A DNA stretch of 64,000 nt from Chloroflexota bacterium (GCA_019239775.1 JAFAZN010000199.1:26690-90689), one strand, 5' to 3'. Positions 19,335 to 50,075 are shown, numbered from the stretch's first letter. Notes: generated by a model from the letters alone, not told the origin. Numbers and translations: made by a program.

Positions 19335-20141
19335 GTGTGGATCAAGTCGCGTATGCCGCCGCACGAAGTTCTGCAGATTCATCTCTTCGAACCGCTGCAC
19401 ATCCAATTGGGAGCTCGACCTCCGCTCGATGTGAATTATCCGCGTCGCAAAGCCAAGGCACTCTTCGTTTACCTGTATCTCAACCGCGGCCGCTGGATAT
19501 CGAAGTACCAACTGCTGGCGGATCTGTGGCCGGAGTCCGAGCACGCCGATCCCGGCCGGGTCAAGCACACGATCCAGATCCTGAGGTCCGCGTTGGAAGG
19601 ACAACGTCCGATCGACGGGTGGCAGGTCATCCTGGAAAAAGGCGGATCGTACGCGTTCAACGCGAGTTTGGACTGGACCAGCGACGTGGAACAATTCGAG
19701 GATACGCTGCGTCTCGCCCGTGCCACCCGGGACCTCGGCGACAAAAGTGCTGCGCGCGAATACTTTCGCGCGGCCATTGCTATCAGGCGCGGTGCGTTCC
19801 TCTCGGAGTTCCGCTACGACGACTGGGCCGCCGTGGAAATCGCCCGGCAGCACGAGCTGTTCATGCAGGCACTCGAAGAAGCGGCTCGGCTGGAGATCAG
19901 CGCGGGTAAGTACACGAACGCGATCGAGCTCTCGCGCTCGGCGATTCGCGAGGACTCGCTGCACGAAAGTAGCTACGTCGAGCTCATGCGCGCACTGTGG
20001 CTGGATGGCCGGCGCACCGACGCCCTGCGTGAGTACCACCGCCTCCGCGACATCCTTGCCAAACGCCTCGACGTCGAGCCGCAAACCCAGACCACGCAAC
20101 TGTATGAGGCTATTCGCCGCGACTCGGCCGTCGCCGTGTAA
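19335..20141 (+). CDS. SARP-family regulator (OmpR-type wHTH + BTAD)
   Basis: 268 aa: RRKAKALFVYLYLNRGRWISKYQLLADLWPE, then the BTAD pattern FEDTLRLA...YFRAAIAIRRGAFLSEF..DDWA...EL.RALWLDGRRTDALREYHRLRDILAKRLDVEP. Confidence 0.85.
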   Translation: MWIKSRMPPHEVLQIHLFEPLHIQLGARPPLDVNYPRRKAKALFVYLYLNRGRWISKYQLLADLWPESEHADPGRVKHTIQILRSALEGQRPIDGWQVILEKGGSYAFNASLDWTSDVEQFEDTLRLARATRDLGDKSAAREYFRAAIAIRRGAFLSEFRYDDWAAVEIARQHELFMQALEEAARLEISAGKYTNAIELSRSAIREDSLHESSYVELMRALWLDGRRTDALREYHRLRDILAKRLDVEPQTQTTQLYEAIRRDSAVAV

Positions 20142-20159: not shown

Positions 20160-22538
20160 ATGGCCTGGGTTTCGCGCGATGCGGGCAACCTCGTCGGGCG
20201 TGATGCGGACTTGGCTCAGTTGCGGACGCTGCACGCCGGTGCACGCCTGCTCACGGTGCTCGGACCACCTGGTGTGGGCAAGACTCGCCTGGGCATGCAC
20301 CTCGCGGCGACGGTCGGCAGGGATTACCCCGATGGCGTGTGGTTTGCTGATGTTGCCGCGATTGCGGACCCGACAATGCTGCCACACGTCCTTTGCCGGC
20401 TCACGGAGGCGCGCCAGGAGCCAGGCCGGACCGCGCTGGACGCGTTGGTCGACCATCTTCGAACTCGCAGCGCGCTGTTAATTCTCGACGGCTGCGAACG
20501 TGCGCTCGAAGTGTGCACTGCCCTCGCGCGAACCCTGTGCGACAGTTGCCCGCACTTGCACGTGATCGCAATCAGTCGTGAACCGATGAATACCAGCGGC
20601 GATACGATCTGGCGCACACCACCACTCGCCGTGCCCACACTCACAGCCGCCCGCGATGAAGTAGCCACTACCGACTCGGTGCAGCTGATGGTGGCGCGCG
20701 CGCGGCAACACGATGCGCGGTTCTCCATCACCCGCGCCAATTGGGCGCCCATCGCGGAGATGTGTCGTCGTCTGGGCGGATTGCCTCTCGCGGTCGAACT
20801 GGTCGCGCCACATATTTCCTCGCGATCGACGCCAGTCCTGCCAATTGCGGAGCTGCGCGAGCACACGAACCGCGAGCAGATCCTGCGAACCACGCTTCGC
20901 TGGGCGACCGCAAACGAGCAGTTGCCACACTTGGCCCGACTCTTGTTGTGTCGTCTATCTGTTTTCGCCGGTACATTCGATGCCGATTCGGCGAAGACGA
21001 TCTGTAGCGACCGAAAGTTGCCCCGGCGGACCATCGAGTCGAATCTCGATCGGCTTGCGAACGCATCACTTCTGGTGCGCGAGGCAACCGCGGACGCGAA
21101 GCGCTATCGAATGCTGGACAGTGTCCGGGAGTTCGCGCTCGAACAACTGTCAGACTCCGGCGAGGAGGACGCGTTCAGGAACAACCTCCTCGAGTACATG
21201 GTCGGACTCGCGGAGCGAGTGGTGCCGGAGGCGGTTGACCCGGCGCACGCTACGGTGCTTGAACGCGAGATCGACAACATCCGCGCAGCTTTGAGCTGGG
21301 CGCTGCGTCGCGGTGAGGACCTCTCCGCCTTGCGATTGGCGCTCGCCGCCTGCTCATTGTGGTACTTCCGCGGGTATTACGCAGAAGGCTCCGAGTGGCT
21401 GGAGCGCGCGTTGCAGCAGGCGGCAGACGCTCCGCCTCCCATACGTGCGCGCGCGGCGGCATGGCTTGGGCAGCTCCTTCAGTTTCGCGGAGAATACGCC
21501 GCTGCCGAGCGGTGGTTGACCCTGGCCGCCGAGCTCCACCAGGTGAGCGGCGATGCTGTGGGCTCCGCTTTTGCAACCGGCATGCTTGGCCAGCTCTTGC
21601 TGATGAGAGGTGAGCTCGAACGAGCTCGGGAATTCGCCAGTCAAGCAGCCGAACGACTCGAAAGCCTGGGCCATCCCATGCACGTCGCCAGCCGCCTTCA
21701 ACTGGCGATTGTCTCGGTGGAGGTGGGTGATCTCACTGCTGCGCGAGCGATCATCCAGCAGTGCGCAGCGCAACGACCCGACCCGAGCGGAATGCTTGGC
21801 GCGTGGTTGCGCTTCCTCGAGGGGCGCGTCGGGGCCGCGGCGCGCAATCTAGTCATCGCGCGCCAGTGTTTTACGCAAGCGTTAGGGGCCAGTCGTGCGC
21901 TCCGCGAACAGACGGCCATCGTCGCGGCCCTGGTCGAGTTAGGCTATGTGGACCTGGGACAACATGAACCCAACCAGGCCCAGGCGGCGTTTCTGGAAGC
22001 GGTCGACCTGGCACGCCAGTCGAGCGACCGGATGCAGTGCGCTCGCGCGGTTGAGGGCCTTGCCGGTACGGTGGCGGACGATCGTCCATTCCTTGCCATT
22101 CGTCTCATAAGCGCCGCGGATCGGTTGCGCACGCTGCTGGGCGCAACCGCGTGGCCACGCGATCGCGGCCGGGCGCAGAGCTGGCTTGCGGCTGCACAGG
22201 CCCAGCTTTCGCAGCGTGAGTATGTGGCCGCCTGGGAACTCGGCCAATCCGACGGCATCGACGAAGCAGTCTCTCTCGTGTGGCAGTTTCCACCGGATGC
22301 CCAATCCTCTACGCCCCAAGCTCCCGCCTTTACGGTGCGCGAGCGCCAGATCGTCAGGCTGTTGGCGCGTGCTGCGACGAATGAACAGATCGCCCGACAG
22401 TTAGGAATCCGCCCGTCCACAGCGCGCACACACGTCGAGCATGTCATGGCCAAGCTGGGTCTTCACAAACGGACGGAGGTCGTGCTGTGGGCGAGCCAGC
22501 ACGTCGCCAGCGATGAAATCAGCCTGGCGCGGGCGTAG
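20160..22538 (+). CDS. STAND-type P-loop NTPase / helical-repeat / LuxR-HTH regulator, paralog 3
   Basis: GPPGVGKT, LLILDGCE, VIAISREPM, TPR-like middle, C-terminal FTVRERQIVRLLARAATNEQIARQLGIRPSTARTHVEHVMAKLG. Lies 18 nt downstream of the SARP gene. Confidence 0.85.
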   Translation: MAWVSRDAGNLVGRDADLAQLRTLHAGARLLTVLGPPGVGKTRLGMHLAATVGRDYPDGVWFADVAAIADPTMLPHVLCRLTEARQEPGRTALDALVDHLRTRSALLILDGCERALEVCTALARTLCDSCPHLHVIAISREPMNTSGDTIWRTPPLAVPTLTAARDEVATTDSVQLMVARARQHDARFSITRANWAPIAEMCRRLGGLPLAVELVAPHISSRSTPVLPIAELREHTNREQILRTTLRWATANEQLPHLARLLLCRLSVFAGTFDADSAKTICSDRKLPRRTIESNLDRLANASLLVREATADAKRYRMLDSVREFALEQLSDSGEEDAFRNNLLEYMVGLAERVVPEAVDPAHATVLEREIDNIRAALSWALRRGEDLSALRLALAACSLWYFRGYYAEGSEWLERALQQAADAPPPIRARAAAWLGQLLQFRGEYAAAERWLTLAAELHQVSGDAVGSAFATGMLGQLLLMRGELERAREFASQAAERLESLGHPMHVASRLQLAIVSVEVGDLTAARAIIQQCAAQRPDPSGMLGAWLRFLEGRVGAAARNLVIARQCFTQALGASRALREQTAIVAALVELGYVDLGQHEPNQAQAAFLEAVDLARQSSDRMQCARAVEGLAGTVADDRPFLAIRLISAADRLRTLLGATAWPRDRGRAQSWLAAAQAQLSQREYVAAWELGQSDGIDEAVSLVWQFPPDAQSSTPQAPAFTVRERQIVRLLARAATNEQIARQLGIRPSTARTHVEHVMAKLGLHKRTEVVLWASQHVASDEISLARA

Positions 22539-24843
22539 CAGCCGTCGGCTGACGCATGCGAATCCGGTAGATGCCCTGCGCATCGGAGTAGTAGAGCGCG
22601 CCGTCAGGTCCGGTGGCGACATCGGAGCTGCAGCCTTGCTTCACGACCTCCTCAAAGCCGATCCGGTCGAAGGTTTGGGACGCGACATGTACGCGACGCA
22701 GCTGCTGCAGGTTCGCATTGCAGTAGAACCAGTCATTGGTCCAGTCGGGCAGTTGGTTGCCCAGATAGAACGTCGACCCAGTCAACCGGACCGGCGGCTT
22801 GATCACCGCCAGCGGCTGTAACGTGCCATAGTCTCCGCCGCGCACGATCATCTGTAACGCGTCGTGGTCCCCACTACTTTCTGCCGCGAGCAACTGATGC
22901 CCGAGTGGGTGAAACGCGAGGCTGGCGACATGATGGAGACCATACGCCCAAATCGCTGGCTGCTTCCCCTGCTGACCAACGAAGGGATTATCATCCGGTA
23001 CGGTTCCATCTGCATTGATGCGGAGAATCGTGCCTGACAGTGTCATGAGGTCTGGCGCCTTGCCAGTCGGACGGTCGTCGGCCACCGATACGTACAGTTT
23101 GCCATCCGGCCCAAACTGGATCGCGCCTGCGCCTGGCAGGTCCTGCAGGATCGGCTTCAAATCGGTCCCTTTGCTGTCAACGTCGGTGAGACGTACGATC
23201 TCGGAGGGCCCACTTGGAGCGGCGTAATAGGCATACACGAAGTGGTTGCGCTGAAAATCCGGATCCAGCGTAAGCCCGAACAAGCCCGAGTCTGGCTGAC
23301 TGGCAACCAGGAGCTGATAGAACGGATCTGGCAGCAACGCTCCGTCCTGCACGACGCGAATCGTGCCGGTCCGCTGCTCTGCATAAAACAGGCGCCCGTC
23401 CGGCGCGAACGACATCGCGGCCGGCATCGCCGCTCCGCTGACAAACGGTTCGGCAATGGCGCTGGCCGGCAGCTTGTCCGGTGGCAGTGCGCCTTGCGGC
23501 AACGGCGTCGGACTGGGTACCAGTGTGGGCGTCGCAGATGGAGTGGAACTCGCCGCCGGCATCGTGCTCGTGCGACTCATGACCATTCCAACCGGCTGAG
23601 ACGCCAATGCGACCGTCCGCATGACCTGAACAGTATCGGCGCTGATCACATCCAGCGCGTTCGTCGCCGCATCGCTTACAAACAGCACGGTCCCGTCCGG
23701 GTTCAGCGCGATTCCGGCCGGTTTGCTACCGACCGGCACCTGCGCCCGCACGCTTGTGGCGTCCGGTGTAACGAGCCATACGGCGCCGGTATCGTCACCA
23801 CCAACGACGTACAACGTGCCATCGTTTCCGATCGTTCCGGCCGAGGGCGGTGCGCCCAGGTCCAGGCGGTTTGCAATTCGCGATGTCGCGGTGTCGATTG
23901 ACACCACCTGGTTCAGCGTGCCAACGAGTACGTAGACACGTTGTCTCGCGGGATCAGGCAGCAGAAGCGTGGGTCCGCCACCGATGTCCAGTGCGTTTAG
24001 CACTGCGCCAGAACCTCCGTCTAGTGCCCACACGGTGCCGGTGCCAGCATCCGCTGCATAGAGGACGTCGCCGCTCGGACCAGCTCCTACTGCGAGGCTG
24101 GTGATTCGGTGAGGCAGGCTGACATCGGACGTCTGTTGCCCCAATGGAATGCGGCCGAACTCTTTGCCAGCACTGGAAGCAAACACCACCGTGCCGCCAA
24201 CTGCCACATATGCTCGCGATGCATCGGTTGAAAACGCAACCGCCAGCGGGCTCTCACCCTCGCGGAACTGGATGTCCTCGCGCCTGGCGCCACTGGGTAC
24301 ATCAAGGAGCGCCACTGAACCACCACGCCCCTGAGGTTTGAACACCCATGCCGTGCGCCCGTCCGGCGCCAACGTCATGCTGCCGGCTGGTTCGCTCAAG
24401 TCGACCGTACGTACTACGCGAGCCGAAACGGGATCGATCTCGGCGATACGGTTGTCTTTGGCCATACTGACCGCCACCAGCGGCACCAGTGTCTGCGCGG
24501 ACGGACTGGGGCTGGCAGCAACACGACTGGGCTTCGGCGGCACGGACGGCGAACCGCTGACACCTCCGGTCAGAGTAGAACCACCGGCTGGTCTAGGAAG
24601 TGGTTGGTCGGTGCTCTCCGGTTGGACCGTCGTTTCGAGAGTTCCTGGGTCAACACTTCGTGCGTCAACACCTCGTGGGTCAAAGTCCGGAGGATCGCTA
24701 TTGGTTACGGCAGTAACTGCGATGGGTGCGGTAGTAACGGTAGGTTGCATCGGATTTGATAGGTGGGGCTCGCAACCACCTTGCGCAAGCGCCACAGCGC
24801 CCAGCACCACCGCAACCGCCGCCGCCGCGCGAGTCCAGTGCAT
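22519..24843 (-). CDS. Secreted two-propeller protein: YVTN/YncE-like repeats + degenerate PQQ sugar dehydrogenase (GSDH)-like domain
   Basis: 774 aa. N-terminal signal/anchor, YVTN-type repeats (about nt 23584-24486), a P/S/T linker, then FAPDGRLFYAEQRTGTIRVVQDG...GLFGLTLDPDF...FGPDGKLYVS (about nt 22549-23460). Several GSDH consensus motifs are replaced (see findings). Confidence 0.8.
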   Translation of the reverse strand: MHWTRAAAAVAVVLGAVALAQGGCEPHLSNPMQPTVTTAPIAVTAVTNSDPPDFDPRGVDARSVDPGTLETTVQPESTDQPLPRPAGGSTLTGGVSGSPSVPPKPSRVAASPSPSAQTLVPLVAVSMAKDNRIAEIDPVSARVVRTVDLSEPAGSMTLAPDGRTAWVFKPQGRGGSVALLDVPSGARREDIQFREGESPLAVAFSTDASRAYVAVGGTVVFASSAGKEFGRIPLGQQTSDVSLPHRITSLAVGAGPSGDVLYAADAGTGTVWALDGGSGAVLNALDIGGGPTLLLPDPARQRVYVLVGTLNQVVSIDTATSRIANRLDLGAPPSAGTIGNDGTLYVVGGDDTGAVWLVTPDATSVRAQVPVGSKPAGIALNPDGTVLFVSDAATNALDVISADTVQVMRTVALASQPVGMVMSRTSTMPAASSTPSATPTLVPSPTPLPQGALPPDKLPASAIAEPFVSGAAMPAAMSFAPDGRLFYAEQRTGTIRVVQDGALLPDPFYQLLVASQPDSGLFGLTLDPDFQRNHFVYAYYAAPSGPSEIVRLTDVDSKGTDLKPILQDLPGAGAIQFGPDGKLYVSVADDRPTGKAPDLMTLSGTILRINADGTVPDDNPFVGQQGKQPAIWAYGLHHVASLAFHPLGHQLLAAESSGDHDALQMIVRGGDYGTLQPLAVIKPPVRLTGSTFYLGNQLPDWTNDWFYCNANLQQLRRVHVASQTFDRIGFEEVVKQGCSSDVATGPDGALYYSDAQGIYRIRMRQPTAATPAPG

Positions 24844-25029: not shown

Positions 25030-25500
25030 ATGATGTCTTTCCGCGCACCGTTCGTTGTCGCCTGCCTGACCGTGGCTTCATTTGCCGCGCCAGCCACCCA
25101 TGCGCAGCAAATGAGTCCCGACTTCAACAGGCAGGTACAGACGACGTTGCCGTCAAATGAGCAGCTCCTGGGACAAATCCAGGACGCACTGCCCACGGAG
25201 GATCTTTCAACTGTTGTCGACCAGACCAATGGGTCCGTCAGCACCGCGCAAGACCTCGTCGACCAATTGCAATCAGCGCTGAGCCTTGCTCCTGACGACA
25301 TCACGCGATCGCGCATCGAAGGTGTGTTGAGCCACACGCACGCCGCACTGGATTCATTGGAAGCGGCGCAGAGCGAATCCTCGCTGGACTCCGCTCGCGG
25401 CCGGCTGGACCAGGCGCGGGGCGAGGCGCAAGAAGCCCTCAGCGAACTGCGACCGTTCGTGCTGGGGTTGGTTGCCACCGGGGACATCACTGGAAAGTAG
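25030..25500 (+). CDS. Secreted helical protein of unknown function
   Basis: 156 aa with signal peptide FVVACLTVASFAAPATHA. Ala/Leu/Gln/Asp-rich helical sequence. GGAGG lies 9 nt upstream of the start. Confidence 0.5.
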   Translation: MMSFRAPFVVACLTVASFAAPATHAQQMSPDFNRQVQTTLPSNEQLLGQIQDALPTEDLSTVVDQTNGSVSTAQDLVDQLQSALSLAPDDITRSRIEGVLSHTHAALDSLEAAQSESSLDSARGRLDQARGEAQEALSELRPFVLGLVATGDITGK

Positions 25501-26194: not shown

Positions 26195-26306
26195 ACCCGC
26201 CATCAGCGGCGAGAGCCCTGCTAATCGGCGGCTTACCTGGTTCCGTCTTCCAAACGTACGGTGAGTTCGCGCGAACCATATTCAGCTCAAAGGAGTGAGC
26301 ACACGT

Positions 26307-26762
26307 ATGGCCAAAAACGCCACGATTGACGATATCCGCAGCGCCGACACCGATGACGAGGCTCCTGACGACGAGGAACGCCGGTTTATCAAAGCACTCA
26401 TTGCGGGCCGCATGTTGCGTCGGCGTCGCGTACGACGCGCCATCCTGCTCCACCTGATGCGCGAGCGGTACGGTGGCGAGGACGAAGACGACGACGAGGA
26501 GGACTATGACACCGAGCGGCGGCTAGTCAGGGCGATCGTGGCCGGACGAATGCTCCGGCGCCGTCGTGTACTCCGCGCGATCCTGCTCCACCTGATGCGC
26601 GAGCGGTACGGTGAGGAGGATGAGGACGAAGGCGACGAGGATGACGAGGACGACGAAGACGGTGACCGCGAAATCATGCGCTGGCTGCTCGGAGAGCGTA
26701 TGCGGCGCCGCCGTCGCGCCAGGCGAATCACCGCGGCCAGCCTGCTGAGGAACAGCGCCTGA
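26307..26762 (+). CDS. Repeat protein alternating Arg-rich amphipathic helices and poly-Asp/Glu tracts
   Basis: AAGGAG at 26290-26295 sits 11 nt before ATG 26307 (the track start GTG 26295 overlaps this RBS). Two and a half copies of RR(F/L)(I/V)(K/R)A(L/I)(I/V)AGRMLRRRRV.RAILLHLMRERYG(E/D)n. Confidence 0.6.
   Translation: MAKNATIDDIRSADTDDEAPDDEERRFIKALIAGRMLRRRRVRRAILLHLMRERYGGEDEDDDEEDYDTERRLVRAIVAGRMLRRRRVLRAILLHLMRERYGEEDEDEGDEDDEDDEDGDREIMRWLLGERMRRRRRARRITAASLLRNSA
26379..26744 (+). repeat. In-frame tandem repeat (138-nt period) inside the charged protein gene
   Basis: An identical 34-nt run, ATCCTGCTCCACCTGATGCGCGAGCGGTACGGTG, occurs at 26442-26475 and at 26580-26613, exactly 138 nt apart. 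A third, partial unit follows. Confidence 0.8.
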
Positions 26763-26822: not shown

Positions 26823-29486
26823 CTATGGCCCAACAACGGTCAGGGTCGCAGCCATCCCCTGCTGCTCATGCCCTGGGATGGGGCAGACCAACCGATACTC
26901 GCCTGGTGCGAGCACCATCTGCAGCGTGCGCGACTCGCCCGCACCGAAATCGTCGGTACTGACGTCGAGTCCTTGTCCCTCAATTCGAAACGCGTGTGCA
27001 GTCTCACCCGTGTCTTCAGCAAGGAATCGAATCGTCCCGGCCGGAACTTTGGTGCGCGACGGTTGCAGCTTCCATTCGCTCAACGAGACGTTCACATCGC
27101 GGTCTTCAGGCCGAGTACCCTCTGGCAGCTCCTCAGGCGTAGACGTAGGCGCGGCTTCGGCCGAAGCCGCGGCCGCTCCGGTGGGCGCCGCAATGAGGTC
27201 GACGGCGTCCACACTGTAAACTCGATAAATGCCTTTGGCGTCGGTGTAATACAGGGCGCCGTCCGGAGCGTTCGCAATACCCAGACTGCAACCCTTCTTG
27301 GCGACTTCCTCGAAGACAACGCGATCGCGACTCTCTGGTGCCAGGTGCACACGTCGCAGCTGACCCTGGTGATAGTTGCAGTAGAACAGGTCGTTCTTCC
27401 AGTCGGGGACCTGGTTACCAGTAAAGAATGCCGCGCCGGTTGGACCAATCGGGGGATTCATCACCGCGATCGGATCGACGACGCCGGGCGCGAACTTGTA
27501 GCCGGTAGGCGGCCAGCCGTAGTTGGCGCCCCTGATAATCAAGTCCAGCTCGTCGTTGTCACCGGGCCCGTTTTCGGTCGCAAACAGACCGTGCTGTAGG
27601 GGATCAAAGTCGAAACTGAAAGGGTTGCGCAGACCATACGCCCAGACTGCACCCTGCTTGCCCGGCTGTCCGGCAAACGGGTTGTCGTCAGGGATGGTCC
27701 CATCTGAATTCACTCGCAGAATTTTGCCAGCCATGCTTCCGAGATCCTGCGCGTTTGACCCCTGGTCGTTGTCGCCCAGCGACAGATACAGCTTGCCGTC
27801 TGGCCCGAAGCGCAGCGTGCCTGAGTTGTGGATCGGGCCTGACGGCAGATCACGGAGAATTGGCGTCAGTTCAGTGCCTTTGTTGTTCACGTCCGTCAGA
27901 CGCACCACTTCGTTTGGCCCGTTCGTCCCGCCATTATCCTGACCATCGGGGACAGACGTGTAAAAGACATACACGTAGTGATTGGTGTCAAAGTCCGGAT
28001 CGAGCGCCAGGCCAATTAATCCGGTCTCCGGCTGGCCCGCTACTTTAAACTGGAAAAATGGATCGGGCAACAGCGTCCCATTTTGTACGACGCGAATCTT
28101 CCCGGTGTGCAGCTCGTTGTAGAACAGCGTTCCATCAGGCGCGAACGCGAGTGACACGGGTGAGTCCGCCGGCATGAATTGTTCGGCGACAACCCCGGCG
28201 GGCAGGTGCTCCGCGGGTTGCGCTCCGTCCGGCAGCGGAGTTGGAGAAGGCACCATTGTCGGAGTCGGGGTGGGGTGCGACGCAGCAGCCGCCGCGGGAC
28301 TGGCGCTGGCGGTCGCCGCGCCACGACCCCGTGCTACAACGACAAGGGCTGTGTCCTTGCCGGTAACGATCTTCGACGCAACCTGATTGACTTCGAGGTC
28401 CAGCACAGCCAGCGCACCGTCCCCAGCGAGCGTGACATATGCCCGCTCGCCATTGAGACTGATCGCCAGTCCGGCCGGTTGGGAGCCGACAGCAACAGGC
28501 GAACCGACGCGCCAGTTTGTGAGGTCGATGGGCCACACCTCGCCCATATCTGTACCGGACACGTAGAGCATTCCGTTTGGCGCAAGGGCGGCGCCGCCCG
28601 GTCGTCCTGGCAAACTCAGACGCTTTGTGATGGACTGGTCGACGGTACTAACTGCAAGTAATTCGTTCGTCGTATCAGCCAAGACGTAGACCGCTTGTCG
28701 CTCCGAGTCGGGCACCAGCGCAATGGGGCCTCCGCCCGTTTCGATCTGTGCCACGAGTCCGCCGGAGCCCCCGTCCAGCGCCCACACCGTACCGCTCGCG
28801 TGCCCCGCGACGTACACGACGTCGCCAGTTGGTCCGCTGGTTACCGCGAGTGCGTCCAGTCTCCGCTGAATCTGGACCCCGGGCGTCGTCTGGCCGAGAT
28901 CCACATGCCCGAATTCGCTGCCGTTCTTGGCATCCAGAAACACGACGCTGCTCGGAAGGGGTGGTGATTCGTTGCCGCCACCGAGCGTGACGTAGGCCCG
29001 CCGGCCATCGGAGGAAAACGCGGCGGCGCTCGGGGTACTACGCAACCGATGGCTGTCGGTATGCGCGTTCTTTGCCAGATCAACCGTGACAAAATCGCTG
29101 GCACCTGGCTTGTTGCTGAACACCCATGCGGTTTGACCGTCCGGCAGGAGCGCCATGCTCTGCACTGGCGTCCCAATATCAACACTGGCGGAGATTTTGC
29201 CGCTTGCGGTGTCAATCAATGACAGTCGCTGGTCAGTCCGACTGGCAACCGCTACGACCTCCGGTTGGACCGGAGTCGCCGTGCCCAATGGGCGTGGTGA
29301 CACCGACGGCACCGGCGCACTCGCTGATCGGCCGGGTGTCGCGCTAGCGGGTGTCGGTGTGCTGGCGCCTGAAAACACTGCCGCGGCCGAAAGCGCGGCG
29401 TCTCCGTTATTGTTCGTGGAAAACGCGAAATAGCCAACGAAAGCCAATACAGCCAGGCCCAAGAGCGTCCGTAGACCATGACGCAT
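26823..29486 (-). CDS. Secreted three-domain redox protein: YVTN/YncE-like propeller + PQQ-dependent sugar dehydrogenase (GSDH family) + type-1-copper cupredoxin
   Basis: Start at MRHGLRTLLGLAVLAF (ATG 29486). GSDH motifs are intact: FAPDGTLFYNELHTGKIRVV, GLIGLALDPDF, IHNSGTLRFGPDGKLYLSLGD, AQD, GKILRV, DNPF, WAYGLRNPFS, ENGPGDNDELDLIIRGANYGWP. C-terminus reads TAHAF...YRLVCPIPGHEQQGMAATLTVV. Confidence 0.85.
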   Translation of the reverse strand: MRHGLRTLLGLAVLAFVGYFAFSTNNNGDAALSAAAVFSGASTPTPASATPGRSASAPVPSVSPRPLGTATPVQPEVVAVASRTDQRLSLIDTASGKISASVDIGTPVQSMALLPDGQTAWVFSNKPGASDFVTVDLAKNAHTDSHRLRSTPSAAAFSSDGRRAYVTLGGGNESPPLPSSVVFLDAKNGSEFGHVDLGQTTPGVQIQRRLDALAVTSGPTGDVVYVAGHASGTVWALDGGSGGLVAQIETGGGPIALVPDSERQAVYVLADTTNELLAVSTVDQSITKRLSLPGRPGGAALAPNGMLYVSGTDMGEVWPIDLTNWRVGSPVAVGSQPAGLAISLNGERAYVTLAGDGALAVLDLEVNQVASKIVTGKDTALVVVARGRGAATASASPAAAAASHPTPTPTMVPSPTPLPDGAQPAEHLPAGVVAEQFMPADSPVSLAFAPDGTLFYNELHTGKIRVVQNGTLLPDPFFQFKVAGQPETGLIGLALDPDFDTNHYVYVFYTSVPDGQDNGGTNGPNEVVRLTDVNNKGTELTPILRDLPSGPIHNSGTLRFGPDGKLYLSLGDNDQGSNAQDLGSMAGKILRVNSDGTIPDDNPFAGQPGKQGAVWAYGLRNPFSFDFDPLQHGLFATENGPGDNDELDLIIRGANYGWPPTGYKFAPGVVDPIAVMNPPIGPTGAAFFTGNQVPDWKNDLFYCNYHQGQLRRVHLAPESRDRVVFEEVAKKGCSLGIANAPDGALYYTDAKGIYRVYSVDAVDLIAAPTGAAAASAEAAPTSTPEELPEGTRPEDRDVNVSLSEWKLQPSRTKVPAGTIRFLAEDTGETAHAFRIEGQGLDVSTDDFGAGESRTLQMVLAPGEYRLVCPIPGHEQQGMAATLTVVGP
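26826..27101 (-). other. Cupredoxin domain with complete type-1 Cu ligand set (His857, Cys894, His899, Met904 in maximal-ORF numbering)
   Basis: Codons verified on the sequence: TGC 26883-26885, CAT 26868-26870, ATG 26853-26855 (minus strand). The pattern C-x4-H-x4-M follows an upstream His in ETAHAF. Confidence 0.8.
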
Positions 29487-29487: not shown

Positions 29488-31224
29488 TCAGTGACTGGCC
29501 AGTGCGGACTGGAGGCGATCCAGCGCTGTTTGTACTTTCGCGTTATCGCCTGCCGCGGCCTCACGCGCCGCGGTGAGTGCGCTGCGAATTTGGTCAGCGC
29601 GTGGATCGTTGACGCCCTGCAATGCTGCTTCGGCTTTGGTGGCTTCCGAATTCACCGCATCACGTCTTTTGGCCAGCTCGTCCGGCGACTGATGCTGGTC
29701 CTGCGCGGCCTGGCTCAGTGCTGTCAGCGCGTTCACAACGCCACCTCCGACTTGTTGCGAATCCAGCTTCGGACCCGGTGTGGACTGCGTTTGGGGACTG
29801 GGTACCGCGGTACCGGGCACGGTACCGGCTGGAGCACCAGCCGCCACCGGTCGGAGTGCCACGCGTGCGTCGGCTAGCTTGTTGGTGTCACCCGCGAATG
29901 CTGCGCGAATCGCATCGACGGCTGTCAGCACTTGCTGTGCAGGGGTGCTCTGAACGCCCTTCAGGCTTGTTTCCGCCTGGTCTGCCTGGTCGGCGAGAGT
30001 TTTCTGGAGGCGGAGCATCGAGCCGGTGTCGTTCTTTTGAAGCGCCGACTGAAAAGCGGCGATTGTCGCGTCCAGGTCGGCCGCGAAACCCTTGATATCG
30101 GTAATGGGTTTGGCGCTGGATGAGCCCTGCGAGGCGGCATCACCGGAGACCTTGCCAAGGTCTGCTCGTGCGCTGCCCAACTTGCTCAGGTCACCTGAGG
30201 CAGTCGCGCGCGCAGCGTTGATTGCGTTGCGTAACGCCACTGCTTGCGCGGATTGGTCTGTGCCCAACGCGGCCTCGTCCTGAGTCGCTTCGTTCAGAAT
30301 CTCCTGCTGGAGCCGGAGCAAGTCGGACTGGCTCGCGGTGGAGGTCGCGGTCGAAAACGCATCCATTTTCGCGGCAAGTGAAGCCGCGAGTCCGGCGTAG
30401 TCGGGAGCACTCTCCGCCGGACCCGCAGCGCCTCCAAGTTTGTCGAGCGCGTCGCCGGCGGTAGCCAGCGCGGTCGCGTCGCCGTCGAGGCCTTTCTGAA
30501 GCAGCGCCAGCGCATCGGTCAGCGCCTTGCCTTGAGCCGAGGTGTCGCTGCCGGCGATCTTCTGAACCGGACCGATCTCTTCGACCAGCTTGCCTTGAAG
30601 GCGCAGCGCATCTCCGGCGTTCTTGCTCTGCACCGCCTGGCGCAGATTGCGCACGTCCTCCGCGACGGTTCTGACGTCTGCAACGCCGCCTGAATTGGAC
30701 GTGTCGGACGTGAGCTGAGCGATGCTCGTCGAACCACCGATGACCTGCCGCAGCGCCGCGTCGGCGTGATCGAGTCCATTGGTGTCACCACCAATCGCTT
30801 GCCGAATGTCGGCTATGGCGCCTCGCACCGCCTGCGCCTGCGGGGACTTATCGCTCTTGAGCGCGGTATCTGCGTCGTTGGCGGCCGCCAACAAATCGCG
30901 CTGGTCCTTCAGCGCGCCGTTCACATCCTGATCGCGCAGCGCGGTGCGGAACGCACCGAGCTTTGCGTCGAGCGATGCTGCGGCTGGCGTGAGTGCTTGA
31001 CTCGGCGCGACGGGTGTTGGAATCGGCAGCGGCGTCGGACGCGGAGTAGGCGAGGGCACGGCTGTCGGCGACTCCTCCGCCGTCGGGACCGTGGCGACCT
31101 CAGTCGCGGTCGGGACATCCGTAGGCGGGGGCGCCCCCGCTCCAGGGATTGCCGACTGGCAGGCCGTGGCCGCCACGAGTGCCGCCGCACAAGCCAGGTG
31201 AGAAATCGCTTTGCTCCCTACCAT
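29488..31224 (-). CDS. Lipoprotein built from five roughly 85-100-aa Ala-rich helical repeats
   Basis: Signal LVAATAC, a P/T-rich linker, then five units. Each ends in a motif like AQAVRGAIADIRQAIGGDTNGLDHADAALRQV / AQQVLTAVDAIRAAFAGDTNKLADARVALRPV / ADQIRSALTAAREAAAGDNAKVQTALDRLQSAL. The stop lies 1 nt before the next gene's start. Confidence 0.6.
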   Translation of the reverse strand: MVGSKAISHLACAAALVAATACQSAIPGAGAPPPTDVPTATEVATVPTAEESPTAVPSPTPRPTPLPIPTPVAPSQALTPAAASLDAKLGAFRTALRDQDVNGALKDQRDLLAAANDADTALKSDKSPQAQAVRGAIADIRQAIGGDTNGLDHADAALRQVIGGSTSIAQLTSDTSNSGGVADVRTVAEDVRNLRQAVQSKNAGDALRLQGKLVEEIGPVQKIAGSDTSAQGKALTDALALLQKGLDGDATALATAGDALDKLGGAAGPAESAPDYAGLAASLAAKMDAFSTATSTASQSDLLRLQQEILNEATQDEAALGTDQSAQAVALRNAINAARATASGDLSKLGSARADLGKVSGDAASQGSSSAKPITDIKGFAADLDATIAAFQSALQKNDTGSMLRLQKTLADQADQAETSLKGVQSTPAQQVLTAVDAIRAAFAGDTNKLADARVALRPVAAGAPAGTVPGTAVPSPQTQSTPGPKLDSQQVGGGVVNALTALSQAAQDQHQSPDELAKRRDAVNSEATKAEAALQGVNDPRADQIRSALTAAREAAAGDNAKVQTALDRLQSALASH

Positions 31225-31229: not shown

Positions 31230-31868
31230 TCAGTCCTTCGCAACCGTGAAAGTGGCAGTCACCTCCGTCTGGCTGTGTTCGCCGACGAAGATCAGCGTGT
31301 TGTCTCCAGTGAGGTCCTGCAGCGCGACGGCATTCTCGGCAGTGATCCGCCCGTCGGAGTCCGCGGTGACCTGAGCTACGGGTGCGTTCGTGCGCGTGTT
31401 GAGATAAACGGCTACGGCTTCACCCGGAACGAAGTCTTCGCCAGCGAATCCCACTCCGCTCTGCGGTGAGATGTAGTAGCTGCGCAACACTACCCAGGGG
31501 TGAAAGCCTTGCACGTTGAATCCAACCGAGGCCGGTGTCTGGGACGTGCGTCCGACGAAGGTCAACTTGTAGTCGCCAGCGCCGAGAAAGGGAACCGCGA
31601 CGTCCGTTCCGGATATTTCACCGCGAGTATCCGCTGTCACCGTAATAAGCGGATCCGCTGTCTGGTCCCCCAGAAATGCATCCACGGGTTCGCCCGGGGC
31701 GAAGCCGGAGCCGCTGAAGCTAAATGTTTGGCTCGGCTTGCCTGTGTACGTCTGCAGATGTACCGCTGGCGGACCAGAATCGGCAGTGGCCGGAGTGGCC
31801 GCCATCGTGCAAGCAAGTGCGACCAGGGTCCGGACGACATTGACATAGTGCTTCGGCGAAGGGATCAC
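31230..31868 (-). CDS. Secreted protein with two copies of a roughly 100-aa Ig-like module
   Basis: GTG start in a GTGA overlap with the upstream stop. Signal peptide present. Modules carry FSFSGSGFAPGEPVDAFL and VGFAGEDFVPGEAVAVYL, each followed by D..G motifs and LTFVG / LIFVG strands. Confidence 0.6.
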   Translation of the reverse strand: MIPSPKHYVNVVRTLVALACTMAATPATADSGPPAVHLQTYTGKPSQTFSFSGSGFAPGEPVDAFLGDQTADPLITVTADTRGEISGTDVAVPFLGAGDYKLTFVGRTSQTPASVGFNVQGFHPWVVLRSYYISPQSGVGFAGEDFVPGEAVAVYLNTRTNAPVAQVTADSDGRITAENAVALQDLTGDNTLIFVGEHSQTEVTATFTVAKD

Positions 31869-33796
31869 GCGCCGGACTCCTTTGGCGGAAGGGTGAGCTG
31901 GGTGCCAGCTTGAAGGACGTTCGGGTCATTGCCGATTGCCGCCTTGTTGGCGTCGTAAATCGCCTTCCACTGGTTCGCGTCGCCGTACACGGCGGCAGCG
32001 ATCGACGGCAGTGTGTCGCCGGCCTTGACGGCGTACGTCGCGCTGGGCGGCGAGGCTGGTGCAGCCGTCGCGGCCAGCGTGGCTGCCACGGACGGTGCTG
32101 GCGTACTCCGCTTCGCGGGTGTTGGACTCCCCTTCGCCGGCGTTGGACTTCCCTTCGTCGGCGCCGGCGTCGCTTGCGGCGTGGTACTCGCGGCAGCCCG
32201 CACGTTCGGCGAGGGCTTCGGAACCGCGGTCGGACTCGTCTGCTCGGGCGCGGGAGTATCAGCTGTTGCGCCAGCCGCGGCCGCTGCAACAGCCCCCGCC
32301 GAGACCGGTGGGCCTTGCACGACACCGACCACCTGCGGCGCATCGGGACCATCCGTCAAATCGCAGGCAAATGGCGCTTGTGGTGGAACCTGAACCGGAA
32401 CATCTGAGGCAATGACTTCCAACGCAGCCGTGGCGGCTGCCTGGCTTCGGCTACCAATCAACGTGAACACCAGCTGGCCAGGACTCGCGTCACCGGGCAC
32501 GACGTACGAGCCACCGGAGGCGGCGTTGCCCTGGCCGTCGGTCCGGAAGCAACTCACCTCCTGGCCGGCGTCGGCGTCTGTCCGCCCGACAAACGCGTGC
32601 ACGATCTCGTTGCGCGCAAAGCCGATCGCGTAAAACGTCAATGTTGTGCCGGGACGTCCACCGTACGTGCTGGGCTGCGCGCTTGGTGTGTACGGCAACG
32701 TGTCAAAGCTGGCGGTCGTCGGCGCTTTGCTCTGGCTGCCAACGAAAATCAGCGTTTGCTTGCCCTGGAGTCCGAACGGCACGAGAAAACCACCAGAATT
32801 CGTGAATCCGCCGGTATCGTCCGTCTGAATCGTCGTCAGCGCGGGAGTATCAGGATCATTGAGAAAAACAGTCACCTGTTCGCCAGGACCAAAATCCTTG
32901 CCAGAGAAGCTGAGCACGTTGTCAGGTTTGATCGCGTAGCTCGAAAGGTCTACGCTTGGATACAGGTTCAGCAATTGGAACGCGACGGTTACCGGCGACT
33001 GGCTCTTGTCGCCAACGAACACGAACGCGTTATTGCCGACCGCACCGAACGGCACGCGGACAGAGCCTTGCCGCACAGTGCCAGCCTCGTCCGTTTGCAC
33101 AGTGCCGATCGAGTCGCTGGACAGATCGTTCCAGTACACCGTGATCGTCTCGGTCGGGTCGAAGCCGCTCGCCGACAGCTGGATGGTGTCGCCGGATTTG
33201 GCGGCTTGCGTTCCCAGTTTGACCTGCGGCGATCCTCCCGCAATGACGGCCGTCGCGGTGGCAGCATTGTCGCTTTCCCTTTCTCTCGCCTGAACGACGA
33301 AGCTGCCACGGGGTAGCGAATCGGGCACGGCAAATGTCACTCCGCCAAAACCGCCACTCTTATCGACCTGGACAAAGGTCAACGGATCGACGCTGTCTGT
33401 CACCTGTTGTTTGACATAGATATCCAGCGTGGCGCCCGGATCGAAGCCGCTGCCCGTTACGCCCACGCTCGAGCCCTGCCTGACGGTGCTCGGATTGAGC
33501 AATACCAGTGGTCGCGCTTCGATCGACACGGCAGTGCCCTGGATTTGCACGACCAATGGAGTTGGAGTCGGCCCGTTGGCCTGTGCCGCGGCGGGAGTCC
33601 GCCCGGCAACCGGCGTCGTCGTAGCCGGTGCATTGCCGTTGCGCACGCCCGGAGTGCCGCGCTGGGCGCTAGCGCCTGTTGTGTCCACAGCCACCTCTCC
33701 GCCTGAGCCAGAACCCGTCAAGATGATGCGAGCGACAACCAGCACCAGGATGAGCCCTGCGCCCACCGCGATGAGGCGTTGTTTCATCCGAGCCAA
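31865..33796 (-). CDS. Membrane-anchored surface protein: four Ig-like modules + P/A/T linker + C-terminal LysM
   Basis: N-terminal TM (ATG 33787 gives MKQRLIAVGAGLILVLVV). Modules with VGVTGSGFDPGATLDIYV, LSASGFDPTETITVYW, FSGKDFGPGEQVTVFL, FYAIGFARNEIVHAFV. LysM is YAVKAGDTLPSIAAAVYGDANQWKAIYDANKAAIGNDPNVLQAGTQLTLP (about nt 31868-32035). Confidence 0.7.
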   Translation of the reverse strand: MARMKQRLIAVGAGLILVLVVARIILTGSGSGGEVAVDTTGASAQRGTPGVRNGNAPATTTPVAGRTPAAAQANGPTPTPLVVQIQGTAVSIEARPLVLLNPSTVRQGSSVGVTGSGFDPGATLDIYVKQQVTDSVDPLTFVQVDKSGGFGGVTFAVPDSLPRGSFVVQARERESDNAATATAVIAGGSPQVKLGTQAAKSGDTIQLSASGFDPTETITVYWNDLSSDSIGTVQTDEAGTVRQGSVRVPFGAVGNNAFVFVGDKSQSPVTVAFQLLNLYPSVDLSSYAIKPDNVLSFSGKDFGPGEQVTVFLNDPDTPALTTIQTDDTGGFTNSGGFLVPFGLQGKQTLIFVGSQSKAPTTASFDTLPYTPSAQPSTYGGRPGTTLTFYAIGFARNEIVHAFVGRTDADAGQEVSCFRTDGQGNAASGGSYVVPGDASPGQLVFTLIGSRSQAAATAALEVIASDVPVQVPPQAPFACDLTDGPDAPQVVGVVQGPPVSAGAVAAAAAGATADTPAPEQTSPTAVPKPSPNVRAAASTTPQATPAPTKGSPTPAKGSPTPAKRSTPAPSVAATLAATAAPASPPSATYAVKAGDTLPSIAAAVYGDANQWKAIYDANKAAIGNDPNVLQAGTQLTLPPKESGA

Positions 33797-36911: not shown

Positions 36912-38398
36912 AAAGACAACAGCGAAACTGGTGGTTTGTGTTCGTACTCGTGGTCATCTGCGGGATCGTTCTGGGCGCTGCCATCCTGGTTCCACCTTAC
37001 GTGGCGGTAGCGCCAACGCAGGCACGCCTCGACCGCTTGCGGGGCCAGTCCGCCTTTGTGGCCGGCCTGAACTATCCATGGAAGACGGGTCAGGACTTCG
37101 GAACTGGCGCCTGGGGCCACTCGGGTGTGAGCGACCCCACCACATACCAGGAGGTCGACGCGGATTTCGCCAACATGGCGGCGCAGGGGGTTCGAGTCGT
37201 GAAGTGGCGGATCTTCAACGATGGTCGCTACGGCCTGGAGTTCGCCGCGGATGGCTCGGTCATCGGAGTGGACGACCTGTTCTTCCAGGACGTCGACGCG
37301 GCCCTCGAGATCGCTTCCCACCACGACGTGTACCTGGTCTTCACACTGTTTTCCAGCGGTTTCTGGACGGCCGACTGTCAGAGCAATGGCGTCCAGCTCG
37401 GGGGGCATGCCGATCTCGTTGTGGACCCGAACAAACGGAAGTCGCTCATTGAGCATGCTGTAGTGCCGCTGCTGACGCACGTCGCCAGCTCCGATCGCAT
37501 ACTCGCCTACGAGGTCGTTGCCGAACCCGAATGGGGCGTCCAGGAACTGAACTCGGACCCCGATCAACGTATCAAATTACCACTTGGAGCCGTCCACGAC
37601 TTTGTCACGGACCTCGTCACCGCGGTTCACGCAAACACGCGGTCTTTGGCCACGCTGGAGTCCAATCGTTTCAGCAACATGCGACAGTGGCAAGGTACGG
37701 GTGTTGATTACTACAGCTTCAGCTGGTATGACTGGTTGGAGCCATATGAACCGCTGGCGACTACAGCCAGCTCCGCAAGTCTGGATAAACCAATTGTTCT
37801 GGGCGAATATCCCGCCGGTGGCAGCGCATATTACTCCGTGCCACAGGTGCTTGACAGCATGGACACACTCGGATACGCCGGAGCCTTCGGCTGGAGTTAC
37901 TGGGCAGGTGACGGCATCAGCGACTGGCGCGACGTGGCTCCGACGTTTAGCGACTGGGTTGGCGCTCATTGGGCCGACGTCGATGTCGGCGGGAACGCGC
38001 CTGTACCCAGTGCAGGCCCGATCCAGGAGCATCCCTATCCATACTCCGTCACGGACCTCTCGGTACACGCAGAGAACGGTGTGGTCACAGCCGACATGAC
38101 CATCGACGTACCGTCTGGTGAGGCGTATGTGCCGCATGCGTACCTCTACGACGTCGGGTCTCCGCAGCCCCTGGAGGACGTGCGCCTCACAGCAGCACCC
38201 GGGCAACCTGGCAAACTTGAAGCCCGCTTCACCTCTGTTGGTGAAGGCACTACCTACTCCCTAAGCCTTGGCATTTTCGATCCCGCGGGCGCGCTGCACA
38301 AGTGGTTCAATGATCTGTCGACGTTTGCCATCGCCGGTGGAGCGCTCACAACCCCCCACGTCGACGCGCTCGCGAACGAACTCGGGTGCAGCAGCTGA
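36908..38398 (+). CDS. Membrane-anchored clan GH-A (TIM-barrel) glycoside hydrolase-like protein with C-terminal beta-rich domain
   Basis: ATG 36908 overlaps the upstream TGA (ATGA). TM is WWFVFVLVVICGIVLGAAIL. LAYEVVAEPEW (NEP-like acid/base strand) and IVLGEYPAG (nucleophile-like strand). GH family not assignable by eye. Confidence 0.55.
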   Translation: MKRQQRNWWFVFVLVVICGIVLGAAILVPPYVAVAPTQARLDRLRGQSAFVAGLNYPWKTGQDFGTGAWGHSGVSDPTTYQEVDADFANMAAQGVRVVKWRIFNDGRYGLEFAADGSVIGVDDLFFQDVDAALEIASHHDVYLVFTLFSSGFWTADCQSNGVQLGGHADLVVDPNKRKSLIEHAVVPLLTHVASSDRILAYEVVAEPEWGVQELNSDPDQRIKLPLGAVHDFVTDLVTAVHANTRSLATLESNRFSNMRQWQGTGVDYYSFSWYDWLEPYEPLATTASSASLDKPIVLGEYPAGGSAYYSVPQVLDSMDTLGYAGAFGWSYWAGDGISDWRDVAPTFSDWVGAHWADVDVGGNAPVPSAGPIQEHPYPYSVTDLSVHAENGVVTADMTIDVPSGEAYVPHAYLYDVGSPQPLEDVRLTAAPGQPGKLEARFTSVGEGTTYSLSLGIFDPAGALHKWFNDLSTFAIAGGALTTPHVDALANELGCSS

Positions 38399-38402
38399 AC
38401 CT

Positions 38403-43186: not shown

Positions 43187-43195
43187 CCGCGACGA

Positions 43196-43588
43196 CTACT
43201 GCACCGACTCCACGCAGCCGCTGGCCTCGGTCTGCAACACGTACGTCTTCTGTCCGGTGGACCCGTCAGGAGCTTGCTCCGTGGCAACGTACACCCGAAT
43301 CTCGCCACCACTGGTGCGCGGCCAATCACCAACGTGATTGATGGTCAATGTCACCCCGCTTTCGGCATGGCTTGTGCGCAGTTGCTGTGTCTGCTGCTCG
43401 AGCACATCAACCGGTAGCTGCGCCTGTACCGTCGGGCAGAGCTGACTCCAGCCGAGCGCGCCGTCTTCCGCGGCGACCGACTGCATGAAGACGTCAGCAG
43501 GCGTCGGCTCGCTCGACGCCATGCGCCAGTAGGCTGCGCCAGCGACCACCAGAGTCAGCGCCACGTTCACGAGCACAATCGGGTGCAT
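43196..43588 (-). CDS. Small N-terminally anchored protein of unknown function
   Basis: 130 aa, TM IVLVNVALTLVVAGAAYW, two Cys. GGAGGAGG lies upstream of the ATG. Confidence 0.45.
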   Translation of the reverse strand: MHPIVLVNVALTLVVAGAAYWRMASSEPTPADVFMQSVAAEDGALGWSQLCPTVQAQLPVDVLEQQTQQLRTSHAESGVTLTINHVGDWPRTSGGEIRVYVATEQAPDGSTGQKTYVLQTEASGCVESVQ

Positions 43589-43676
43589 ACGAGGGAGGTC
43601 CTCCTCCGGTCAGACTAATTTCGCACGCTGGTCTCGCACCTCGACAGGGCAGTCAAAGGCCCGAACGAAAGCCGAA

Positions 43677-50069: not shown

Positions 50070-50075
50070 GCCCCG

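Follow-up and report, generated by a model that had tools for sequence, protein, structure and literature searches.

A predicted sugar-oxidising dehydrogenase with a fused type-1 copper domain and an additional beta-propeller in uncultured Chloroflexota

The gene analysed here lies at 26823..29486 on the minus strand of a 64,000-nucleotide stretch of DNA from an uncultured soil Chloroflexota bacterium (GCA_019239775.1 JAFAZN010000199.1:26690-90689; this whole stretch is called the window below). It encodes a protein of 887 amino acids (aa) in which a membrane helix, a seven-bladed beta-propeller, a six-bladed propeller of the GSDH type and a cupredoxin follow one another, as defined by the open reading frame (ORF), Pfam, AlphaFold2 and full-length orthologues at 50-73% identity. 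The interpretation that we consider most likely, and hold with moderate confidence, is that the protein is a sugar-oxidising, membrane-tethered, extracytoplasmic oxidoreductase wired to its own fused electron acceptor. The evidence that carries this interpretation is that, across the family, the cupredoxin is present where the active site of the GSDH-type domain is intact and absent where that site has decayed.

The gene is a single unbroken ORF from an ATG start codon to a stop codon. The gene upstream (29488..31224, minus strand) has its TGA stop codon 1 nt ahead of this ATG and the starts of orthologues map to the equivalent residue; therefore, a longer GTG-initiated ORF (to 29564) is unlikely to be the gene and was rejected. 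An AlphaFold2 model of the protein, built on 30 family members, has a mean predicted local distance difference test score (pLDDT) of 82 and a predicted template modelling score (pTM) of 0.72, with three well-folded domains in which most blocks reach a pLDDT of at least 90. In order from the N-terminus, the minus-strand features are a signal-anchor or signal peptide (aa 1-23, 29418..29486) with basic residues R2 and R6, then a hydrophobic stretch, and a helix assigned by DSSP to residues 5-21; a disordered Ala/Ser/Pro/Thr linker (aa 24-72, 29271..29417, pLDDT 25-33); a propeller of the YVTN/YncE type (aa 73-390, 28317..29270); a disordered Pro/Thr/Ala linker (aa 391-429, 28200..28316); the GSDH-type propeller (aa 430-760, 27207..28199); a disordered Ala/Pro/Thr linker (aa 761-789, 27120..27206, pLDDT below 50 at residues 771-784); and a beta-sandwich, the cupredoxin (aa 790-887, 26826..27119). 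The stretches that are disordered in the model are residues 20-72, 391-417 and 771-784. The pTM of 0.72 for a three-domain chain is no more than suggestive of some inter-domain packing in the model, and the predicted N-terminal helix, disordered linkers and folded domains point to a membrane-tethered, extracytoplasmic protein. An initial annotation, made from the sequence alone, had proposed a fusion of a YncE-like propeller, an intact pyrroloquinoline quinone (PQQ) sugar dehydrogenase and a blue-copper domain; profile searches and structure prediction yield the same three domains, namely a YVTN propeller, a GSDH propeller and a cupredoxin.

The middle domain has the six-bladed fold of GSDH and aldose sugar dehydrogenase (Asd). 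Pfam matched residues 441-748 to GSDH (PF07995) at E = 2.8e-67 (227.8 bits against a cut-off of 25), comparison with solved structures gave E ~1e-40 to 1e-35 for 3A9G, 2ISM, 2G8S and 7CDY and 1e-27 for soluble glucose dehydrogenase (sGDH), and Foldseek aligned the model of the domain to 2ISM with a template modelling (TM) score of 0.89. The GSDH motifs first listed by eye are all at the right codons: HNSG (residues 553-556), FGPDGKLY (560-567), GD (571), AQD (579), GKILR (587), DNPF (601), GLRNP (618-622, nt 27621-27635) and NYGWP (655). His553 (27828..27830), within HNSG, aligns with 'DHQSG' of sGDH as the equivalent of its catalytic base His144 and is invariant in family alignment A1. Arg620-Asn621 (27624..27629) are equivalent to R228/N229 of sGDH, which contact the quinone oxygens O4/O5 of PQQ, and Gly640-Pro641 (27564..27569) to G247/P248, which bind the active-site Ca2+ through their backbone carbonyls.

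The C-terminal domain is, as had been read from the sequence, a cupredoxin whose ligands form a mononuclear type-1 set. Cupredoxin_1 (PF13473) matched residues 793-877 with 29.7 bits, the final 102 residues, modelled on their own, reach a pLDDT of 95, and the structure nearest to this model is Roseiflexus auracyanin 6KOL (TM 0.75), with the cupredoxin domain of EfeO at 0.73 and a ba3 CuA domain at 0.63. The ligand codons were placed correctly at the outset: Cys868-x4-His873-x4-Met878 is encoded by 26853..26885, and the first, upstream ligand is His831 (26994..26996). The four ligands are 100% conserved in all 50 cupredoxin-bearing clusters of the family, so the ligand set is not a chance occurrence. 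The domain contains one Cys and two His in total, all three of which are copper ligands; because there is a single Cys, the site is, judged from its ligands, mononuclear type 1 and not CuA. A binuclear, CuA-like C-terminus had been a candidate, since the top sequence matches are Thermus ba3 CuA domains and loop chimeras (the scaffold resembles the Thermus ba3 CuA domain and the ligand loop that of auracyanin B), but the single Cys excludes it.

A search of protein databases for the same domain order returned about 50 clusters (defined at 90% identity) with the length and architecture of the protein and 48-73% identity to it, all from metagenomes or uncultured Chloroflexota metagenome-assembled genomes (MAGs); automatic annotations of the family are 'YVTN family beta-propeller protein', 'aldose sugar dehydrogenase' and 'PQQ-dependent sugar dehydrogenase'. 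Of 185,579 species-representative genomes scanned, only four contained a locus of the family, all of them MAGs of uncultured Chloroflexi/Chloroflexota from soil and groundwater; no cultured host of the three-domain family was identified. Also among the matches of the protein-database search are 18 clusters that form a paralogous group and stop directly after the GSDH domain. This group is represented in the window by a 774-aa protein (22519..24843, minus strand) that has the same propeller and GSDH-type domain (39% and 57% identical to those of the cupredoxin-bearing protein, respectively) and no cupredoxin, and that lacks the equivalents of the catalytic His, Arg620, Pro641 and His706. When conservation was computed on an alignment of 69 sequences, His553, Asn554, Arg620, Asn621, Gly640-Pro641, Trp658 and His706 were each 96-100% conserved in the 50 cupredoxin-bearing clusters (group A), whereas in the 18 cupredoxin-less clusters (group B) Arg620 has become His (Arg in 17% versus 98% in group A), Pro641 has become Arg or Ala (Pro in 6% versus 100%), His706 has become Asp or Asn (His in 0% versus 98%) and His553 is retained in 65% versus 98%. 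The presence of the cupredoxin thus co-varies perfectly with an intact active site (50 versus 18 clusters). Loss of the copper domain together with decay of the active site would be expected if the two domains form a single redox unit, and the comparison fits the original proposal that the electron acceptor is fused in cis. The cupredoxin-less paralogue may be a pseudo-enzyme partner of the active form.

The association of this cupredoxin with dehydrogenases extends beyond the family. A word-indexed search for homologues of the isolated cupredoxin yielded nothing beyond short same-family fragments, so an exhaustive profile search of 1.84 billion representatives was needed to see other architectures; 11,133 proteins matched at E<=1e-3, and fusion partners were read from Pfam scans of long single-copy matches. 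Many of the matching proteins are tandem arrays of 3-10 copies. The fusions include the same GSDH subfamily placed behind CarboxypepD_reg domains and fused to this cupredoxin type (P0191), a cupredoxin-GSDH-cupredoxin protein of a different GSDH clade (P0123), an eight-bladed PQQ dehydrogenase (PF01011) with two cupredoxin copies (P0148), a gluconate 2-dehydrogenase subunit 3 with two copies (P0177) and a cytochrome c with a cupredoxin (P0159); none of the architectures of the P0148, P0177 and P0159 types was described in the literature searched for PQQ/GSDH-cupredoxin fusions. With P0123 as query, dozens more clusters of GSDH plus cupredoxin (570-740 aa) were found, those with a named source belonging to Thermomicrobiales or Chloroflexota and some residing on contigs of Mb size. 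At the same level of identity (~62-63% to that query), proteins of GSDH plus cytochrome c (P0283, P0286, P0287) are interspersed among them, the two forms being distinguished by C-x4-H-x4-M loops and CxxCH motifs, respectively. The suggestion that a copper domain here takes the place of the cytochrome of fungal enzymes therefore has a bacterial counterpart, in that cupredoxin and cytochrome c alternate in a sister GSDH clade. Since dozens of GSDH-cupredoxin clusters exist in the P0123 clade, the fusion as such is, on sequence grounds, not unique to this gene, and the added N-terminal propeller is the family-specific element.

Several results weigh against the interpretation considered most likely. 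Five side chains that contact PQQ in sGDH and Asd are altered throughout the family (in sGDH numbering, Q231 to F623, Q246 to N639, K377 to H706, R406 to C733 and R408 to L735), and the basic clamp for the PQQ carboxylates (K377, R406, R408) was not found in the alignments, which place His706, Cys733 and Leu735 there. Phe623 aligns with Gln231 in 'RNPQG' of sGDH, and Asn639 with Gln246 in 'EQGP' ('EHGP' in Asd). His706 (27369..27371), at the position of the Lys377 that pairs with the C7 carboxylate of PQQ in sGDH (PMC6881789), is confined to the cupredoxin-bearing group. Cys733-Ser734-Leu735 (27282..27290) stand where sGDH and Asd have the R406-x-R408 clamp, whose R406 equivalent is conserved across sGDH, Asd and the AA12 family (PMC6881789). 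This region aligns with at most one gap to 2ISM 'GRLREVQVGPDG' ('GRLREV') and 7CDY 'ERIREVRSGPDG' ('ERIREV'), and the family-invariant GC(S/T)L(N/D/G)(V/I)A..PDGALY lines up with GRLREVQVGPDGALY of 2ISM and ERIREVRSGPDGYLY of 7CDY. In addition, the cut-off of the NCBIfam model for glucose/sorbosone PQQ-dependent dehydrogenases (TIGR03606) was missed (132.7 versus 434.55 bits), the single-sequence Pfam score of the cupredoxin barely clears its cut-off (29.7 versus 27 bits), one orthologue locus (L009) has no nearby glycoside hydrolases, and a Pfam run on a total of 42 ORFs of the 64-kb window identified no PQQ-biosynthesis gene and no obvious acceptor such as an oxidase, an auracyanin or a lytic polysaccharide mono-oxygenase (LPMO, PF03067). 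The wording 'intact PQQ sugar dehydrogenase' of the initial annotation was thus too strong, the R-x-R clamp being absent and five PQQ-contacting side chains changed family-wide. Cys703 (27378-27380, minus strand), like Cys733, is conserved in both paralogue groups, and because both are kept in both groups they probably form a structural disulfide.

The protein is nevertheless likely to be an enzyme with a bound quinone-type redox cofactor, of which PQQ in a non-canonical pocket is the most probable version, at about an even chance. The use of PQQ is not dismissed for three reasons: the residues under selection are precisely those of the quinone end and the Ca2+ site, enzymes of the AA12 family hold the carboxylates of PQQ with His residues and backbone amides, and fused cytochromes or cupredoxins, which imply a redox cofactor, are also found in other GSDH clades without R-x-R. 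A six-bladed enzyme of Thermomicrobiales binds PQQ in vitro (preprint 10.64898/2026.07.10.737718). The foremost alternative is that the protein is redox-active and the pocket formed by His706, Cys703/Cys733, Phe623 and Asn639 accommodates some other organic cofactor or a metal, which the cupredoxin would then serve. The family-wide change of five PQQ-contacting side chains, the absence of the R-x-R clamp from neighbouring GSDH clades that also have fused electron-transfer domains, the lack of pqq genes within the 64-kb window and the existence of HHIP, a GSDH-type fold without PQQ, all agree with it, but selection has kept precisely those elements that act at the quinone end of PQQ (His553, Arg620/Asn621 and the Gly-Pro Ca2+ site), clamps can differ as they do in AA12, and no alternative cofactor is known for the GSDH fold. 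We therefore regard a cofactor other than PQQ as unlikely.

The N-terminal propeller is assigned by the YVTN repeat model TIGR02276 of NCBIfam (34.6 against a cut-off of 27.85), by a profile match to 1L0Q at E = 8e-56 (hydrazine synthase beta follows at 2.5e-21 and YncE at 2e-20) and by the AlphaFold2 model, in which ~29 strands between residues 76 and 386 are consistent with seven blades. The equivalog cut-offs were missed, with 61.1 versus 400 bits for YncE (NF052280) and 72.6 versus 287.3 bits for TIGR03866. Its invariant residues are W121, D160, R163, R208, R289 and W318, all equally kept in the catalytically dead paralogues, so the role of the propeller is predicted to be independent of an active dehydrogenase. 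No His is invariant across the propellers in the family alignment, which excludes a CuZ centre like that of nitrous oxide reductase (NosZ) or another metal centre. The lactonase-like role that had been entertained for this domain found little backing: lactonase structures matched the propeller profile at 9e-7 (3HFQ) and 1e-4 (PpgL 6IGB), the Pfam lactonase model PF10282 matched nine of eleven family members at E<=0.1 (best 1.7e-9) and not the window protein, and the similarity is weak and sub-threshold while the invariant residues persist in dead paralogues. A lactonase role is possible but unsupported, and binding or anchoring would account for the domain more simply.

Another alternative is that the whole protein is a non-catalytic binding or scaffold protein of the cellulolytic apparatus at the cell surface, in which the propellers would bind polysaccharide or partner proteins and the cupredoxin would be a tethered carrier that exchanges no electrons with the GSDH domain. 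Such a role would suit the best match of the N-terminal domain (an archaeal S-layer YVTN propeller), the neighbouring secreted proteins (Ig-like-repeat, LysM and Ala-rich) and the existence of a catalytically dead paralogue. It is quite improbable, however: invariance of the catalytic residues is limited to proteins that have the cupredoxin, folds of genuine dehydrogenases are repeatedly joined to this type of cupredoxin, and the cupredoxin alternates with cytochrome c on GSDH domains.

According to the favoured interpretation, the GSDH/Asd-type propeller would oxidise the reducing end (C1) of an aldose, with His553 as the base and with glucose or cello-oligosaccharides as likely substrates given the gene neighbourhood. 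The bound quinone cofactor, most probably PQQ, would be held non-canonically with Ca2+ at Gly640-Pro641, and its two electrons would pass singly to the type-1 copper (His831, Cys868, His873, Met878). The cupredoxin might swing on its disordered linker of ~30 residues and dock on the top face of the propeller, in the manner of the cytochrome domain of cellobiose dehydrogenase (CDH) or of AA8-AA12 enzymes, and then deliver the electrons to an external partner, in Chloroflexi plausibly an auracyanin/terminal-oxidase branch of the respiratory chain. Auracyanin-type blue-copper carriers take the role of cytochrome c in Chloroflexi. The YVTN propeller, common to the catalytically dead paralogue, would be a non-redox binding or anchoring module. 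Cupredoxins are named as accepted electron acceptors of PQQ sugar dehydrogenases in a passage of PMC6657660 that cites Toyama 2004.

Comparison with characterised systems places each part of this scheme. The six-bladed fold is common to Asd (YliI of E. coli, 2G8S; Pyrobaculum aerophilum, 3A9G/3A9H; Thermus TTHA0570, 2ISM; Streptomyces, 3DAS) and to sGDH of Acinetobacter (1C9U), with E ~1e-40 and TM up to 0.89, and shared with it are the catalytic His, the Glu of 'GE.GL', the Arg-Asn pair, the Gly-Pro Ca2+ site and the motifs FGPDGxLY, GKILR, DNPF and NYGWP. Those enzymes are single-domain, soluble and in need of a separate acceptor, whereas the present protein has two extra domains and a membrane anchor; it also lacks their K/R...R-x-R clamp (His706/Cys733/Leu735 instead) and has Phe for Gln231 and Asn for Gln/His246. 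The fungal quinohaemoprotein pyranose dehydrogenase CcPDH (AA8-AA12-CBM1) and CDH link a sugar-oxidising propeller or flavo-domain flexibly to a one-electron carrier and are secreted and cellulose-associated, as is proposed here, but their carrier is a b-type cytochrome rather than type-1 copper, and the present protein is bacterial and has no CBM1. The AA12 domain is distantly related to its GSDH domain (some family members match PF22807, TrAA12, faintly), and Pfam found no AA8 cytochrome b domain in it; the resemblance to AA12-AA8 is one of functional analogy and not of membership. Type II quinohaemoprotein alcohol dehydrogenases likewise combine a PQQ-type dehydrogenase with an acceptor in cis, with haem c instead of copper and an eight-bladed fold, and the bacterial GSDH-cytochrome c fusions of the TIGR02604 type ('PVC heme-binding'; P0283, P0286 and P0287 above) are sisters of the GSDH-cupredoxin proteins in Chloroflexota with haem c for copper.

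Separate blue-copper acceptors are familiar in amicyanin, which works with methylamine dehydrogenase, and azurin, which works with alcohol dehydrogenase IIB or aromatic amine dehydrogenase. In these pairs type-1 copper takes electrons from a quinone cofactor, as we infer for the present protein, but the partners are separate polypeptides and not covalently fused. The auracyanins of Chloroflexi (1QHQ, 6KOL) have the nearest C-x4-H-x4-M loop and fold, again as a separate polypeptide. The seven-bladed fold of the N-terminal domain is found in YVTN propellers (Methanosarcina S-layer protein 1L0Q, E. coli YncE 3VGZ, TIGR03866 and the periplasmic gluconolactonase PpgL 6IGB), none of which is fused to a dehydrogenase; TIGR03866 denotes a 'PQQ-dependent catabolism-associated beta-propeller', and the present propeller falls under its cut-off. 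In NosZ, as here, an N-terminal seven-bladed propeller is followed by a C-terminal cupredoxin with a CuA-like scaffold; unlike NosZ, the present protein has no CuZ site in the propeller, a mononuclear type-1 cupredoxin and a GSDH domain inserted between the two.

The window is a cellulose-utilisation island. By Pfam it encodes GH5 cellulases at 18026-19291, 38268-40151 (with CBM3) and 40209-41576, all on the plus strand, and on the minus strand at 47482-52615 a GH9 cellulase with CelD_N adjoining a solute-binding protein and two permeases of a sugar ATP-binding cassette (ABC) transporter. The cupredoxin-bearing gene is the last of a co-directional run that begins with a LysM/Ig-like-repeat secreted protein (31865-33796, minus strand), whose repeat has no Pfam model, and continues with a second protein made of this repeat, 212 aa long (31230-31868, minus strand), and an Ala-rich secreted protein of 578 aa without a Pfam match (29488..31224, minus strand). 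The Ala-rich protein is a conserved neighbour of the orthologues and a candidate partner. It has a possible lipobox 'ATAC' and no internal repeat detectable by BLAST, and its homologues near the orthologues are 60% (L001), 47% (L010/L011) and 40% (L002) identical. Around the run there are also GT2 and PMT_2 glycosyltransferases, an L,D-transpeptidase and the cupredoxin-less paralogue. Similar ingredients recur elsewhere: one orthologue contig (P0035) has GH5+CBM3, the Ala-rich protein, GT2, a BTAD regulator and the solute-binding protein, permeases and GH9; another (P0002) has GH5+CBM3, PMT_2, GT2, LysM, a 583-aa protein, the orthologue, a 156-aa ORF and the paralogue, so that the active form and the paralogue are likewise paired with the small ORF between them; a third (P0043) has GH32/43 and GH5+LysM. 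Shared ingredients of the neighbourhood also recur at the L001 and L002 loci, and the cellulase/ABC gene set recurs in the Chloroflexi contigs of L010, P0002 and L002. Judged from this neighbourhood, the substrates would be glucose or cello-oligosaccharides, and the protein would work at the cell surface.

Other features of the window may be recorded here. The ~90-180 aa repeated domain, Ig-like by appearance and without a Pfam model, defines a secreted family whose members are encoded on the minus strand at 31230-31868, 31865-33796, 41546-43186 and 43677-44966; one of them ends in LysM, and homologues are found repeatedly beside cellulases in L001 and L010/L011. For five ORFs at 41546-47398, Pfam gave no confident match. 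Three minus-strand ORFs downstream of the GH9/ABC operon (44967-45812, 45809-47398 and 43196-43588) have no Pfam match and could hide an electron acceptor or other cellulolytic components. The region around the cellulases is unusually dense in regulators, with three large STAND/AAA-TPR-LuxR (MalT-like) proteins (5325-7646, 7643-9997 and 20160-22538, plus strand), a BTAD/SARP regulator (19335-20141, plus strand) and at least six two-component genes. A plus-strand ORF at 25030-25500 encodes a secreted, apparently helical protein of 156 aa without a Pfam match that has a homologue in L002 (42% identity); the 156-aa ORF of the P0002 contig has the corresponding position, with the active paralogue on one side and the dead one on the other. 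In another plus-strand ORF (26295-26762, 155 aa, with a high third-position GC content of 0.76), copies of the internal repeat GRMLRRRRV.RAILLHLMRERYG take turns with extended stretches of Asp and Glu. Pfam gave no match for it and the fetched loci contain no homologue; the ORF may be a genuine small gene or fortuitous.

The neighbourhood also invites a variant of the favoured interpretation in which the enzyme is an extracellular generator of reductant for oxidative attack on cellulose, a bacterial counterpart of CDH or AA12-AA8, with electrons from cello-oligosaccharides going via the copper domain to a copper mono-oxygenase or another extracellular acceptor instead of respiration. GH5/GH9 cellulases, CBM3 and a sugar ABC transporter recur near the orthologues, and the fungal AA12 and CDH enzymes, which act in oxidative cellulose attack, have built-in electron-transfer domains. 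This destination for the electrons is nonetheless more doubtful than even the scaffold role, because no LPMO (PF03067) or other candidate acceptor was identified in the window, several neighbours have no Pfam match and no assignable function, and the N-terminal membrane anchor would keep the enzyme at the cell, where respiration suits equally well. Finally, a cupredoxin that handles copper or iron like the domains of CopI or EfeO, in a protein for metal resistance or uptake, is very improbable: the NCBIfam matches to EfeO (31.9 bits) and CopI (18.8 bits) and the structural similarity to the EfeO cupredoxin domain (TM 0.73) suggest it, but those scores are far under the respective cut-offs (270 and 280 bits), the domain offers the four type-1 ligands alone, with no additional His/Met-rich site, Pfam scans of the window identified no cop or efe genes near the gene, and the co-variation of the cupredoxin with the active site would have no explanation.

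Quinoprotein sugar dehydrogenases are known as stand-alone or cytochrome-fused enzymes and blue-copper proteins as separate acceptors. No description of a PQQ/GSDH-cupredoxin fusion was found in the literature searched, and a 2026 survey covering 22,000 six-bladed PQQ proteins reports no fusions other than those with haem. The fusion is nevertheless common in Chloroflexota, with about 50 clusters of the three-domain form and dozens of the two-domain form. It is an uncharacterised variant of a known theme, that of quinoprotein dehydrogenases with built-in electron carriers, rather than a system of a new kind. It stands out most for the use of copper as carrier, the lack of the Arg clamp, the additional propeller and the existence of a dead paralogue. 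A broader proposal, which we advance tentatively and rate somewhat below an even chance, is that these are the first natural 'quino-cupro-proteins', sugar dehydrogenases of the six-bladed PQQ type joined covalently to a type-1 copper centre, with a re-modelled, clamp-less cofactor pocket, and that together with the dead paralogue, the Ala-rich partner and the GH5/GH9 cellulases they constitute a CDH/AA12-like oxidative cellulose module on the cell surface of uncultured soil Chloroflexota, passing electrons to respiration or to an extracellular copper enzyme.

The missing PQQ clamp makes the family a test case for inferring PQQ dependence from the GSDH fold. If the favoured interpretation is correct, cupredoxin and cytochrome c would be interchangeable as built-in acceptors, and the family would provide a defined model for intramolecular quinone-to-copper electron transfer and a natural template for the direct-electron-transfer biosensor enzymes that are now engineered by cytochrome fusion. 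It would also add an oxidative component to the use of cellulose by abundant uncultured soil Chloroflexi.

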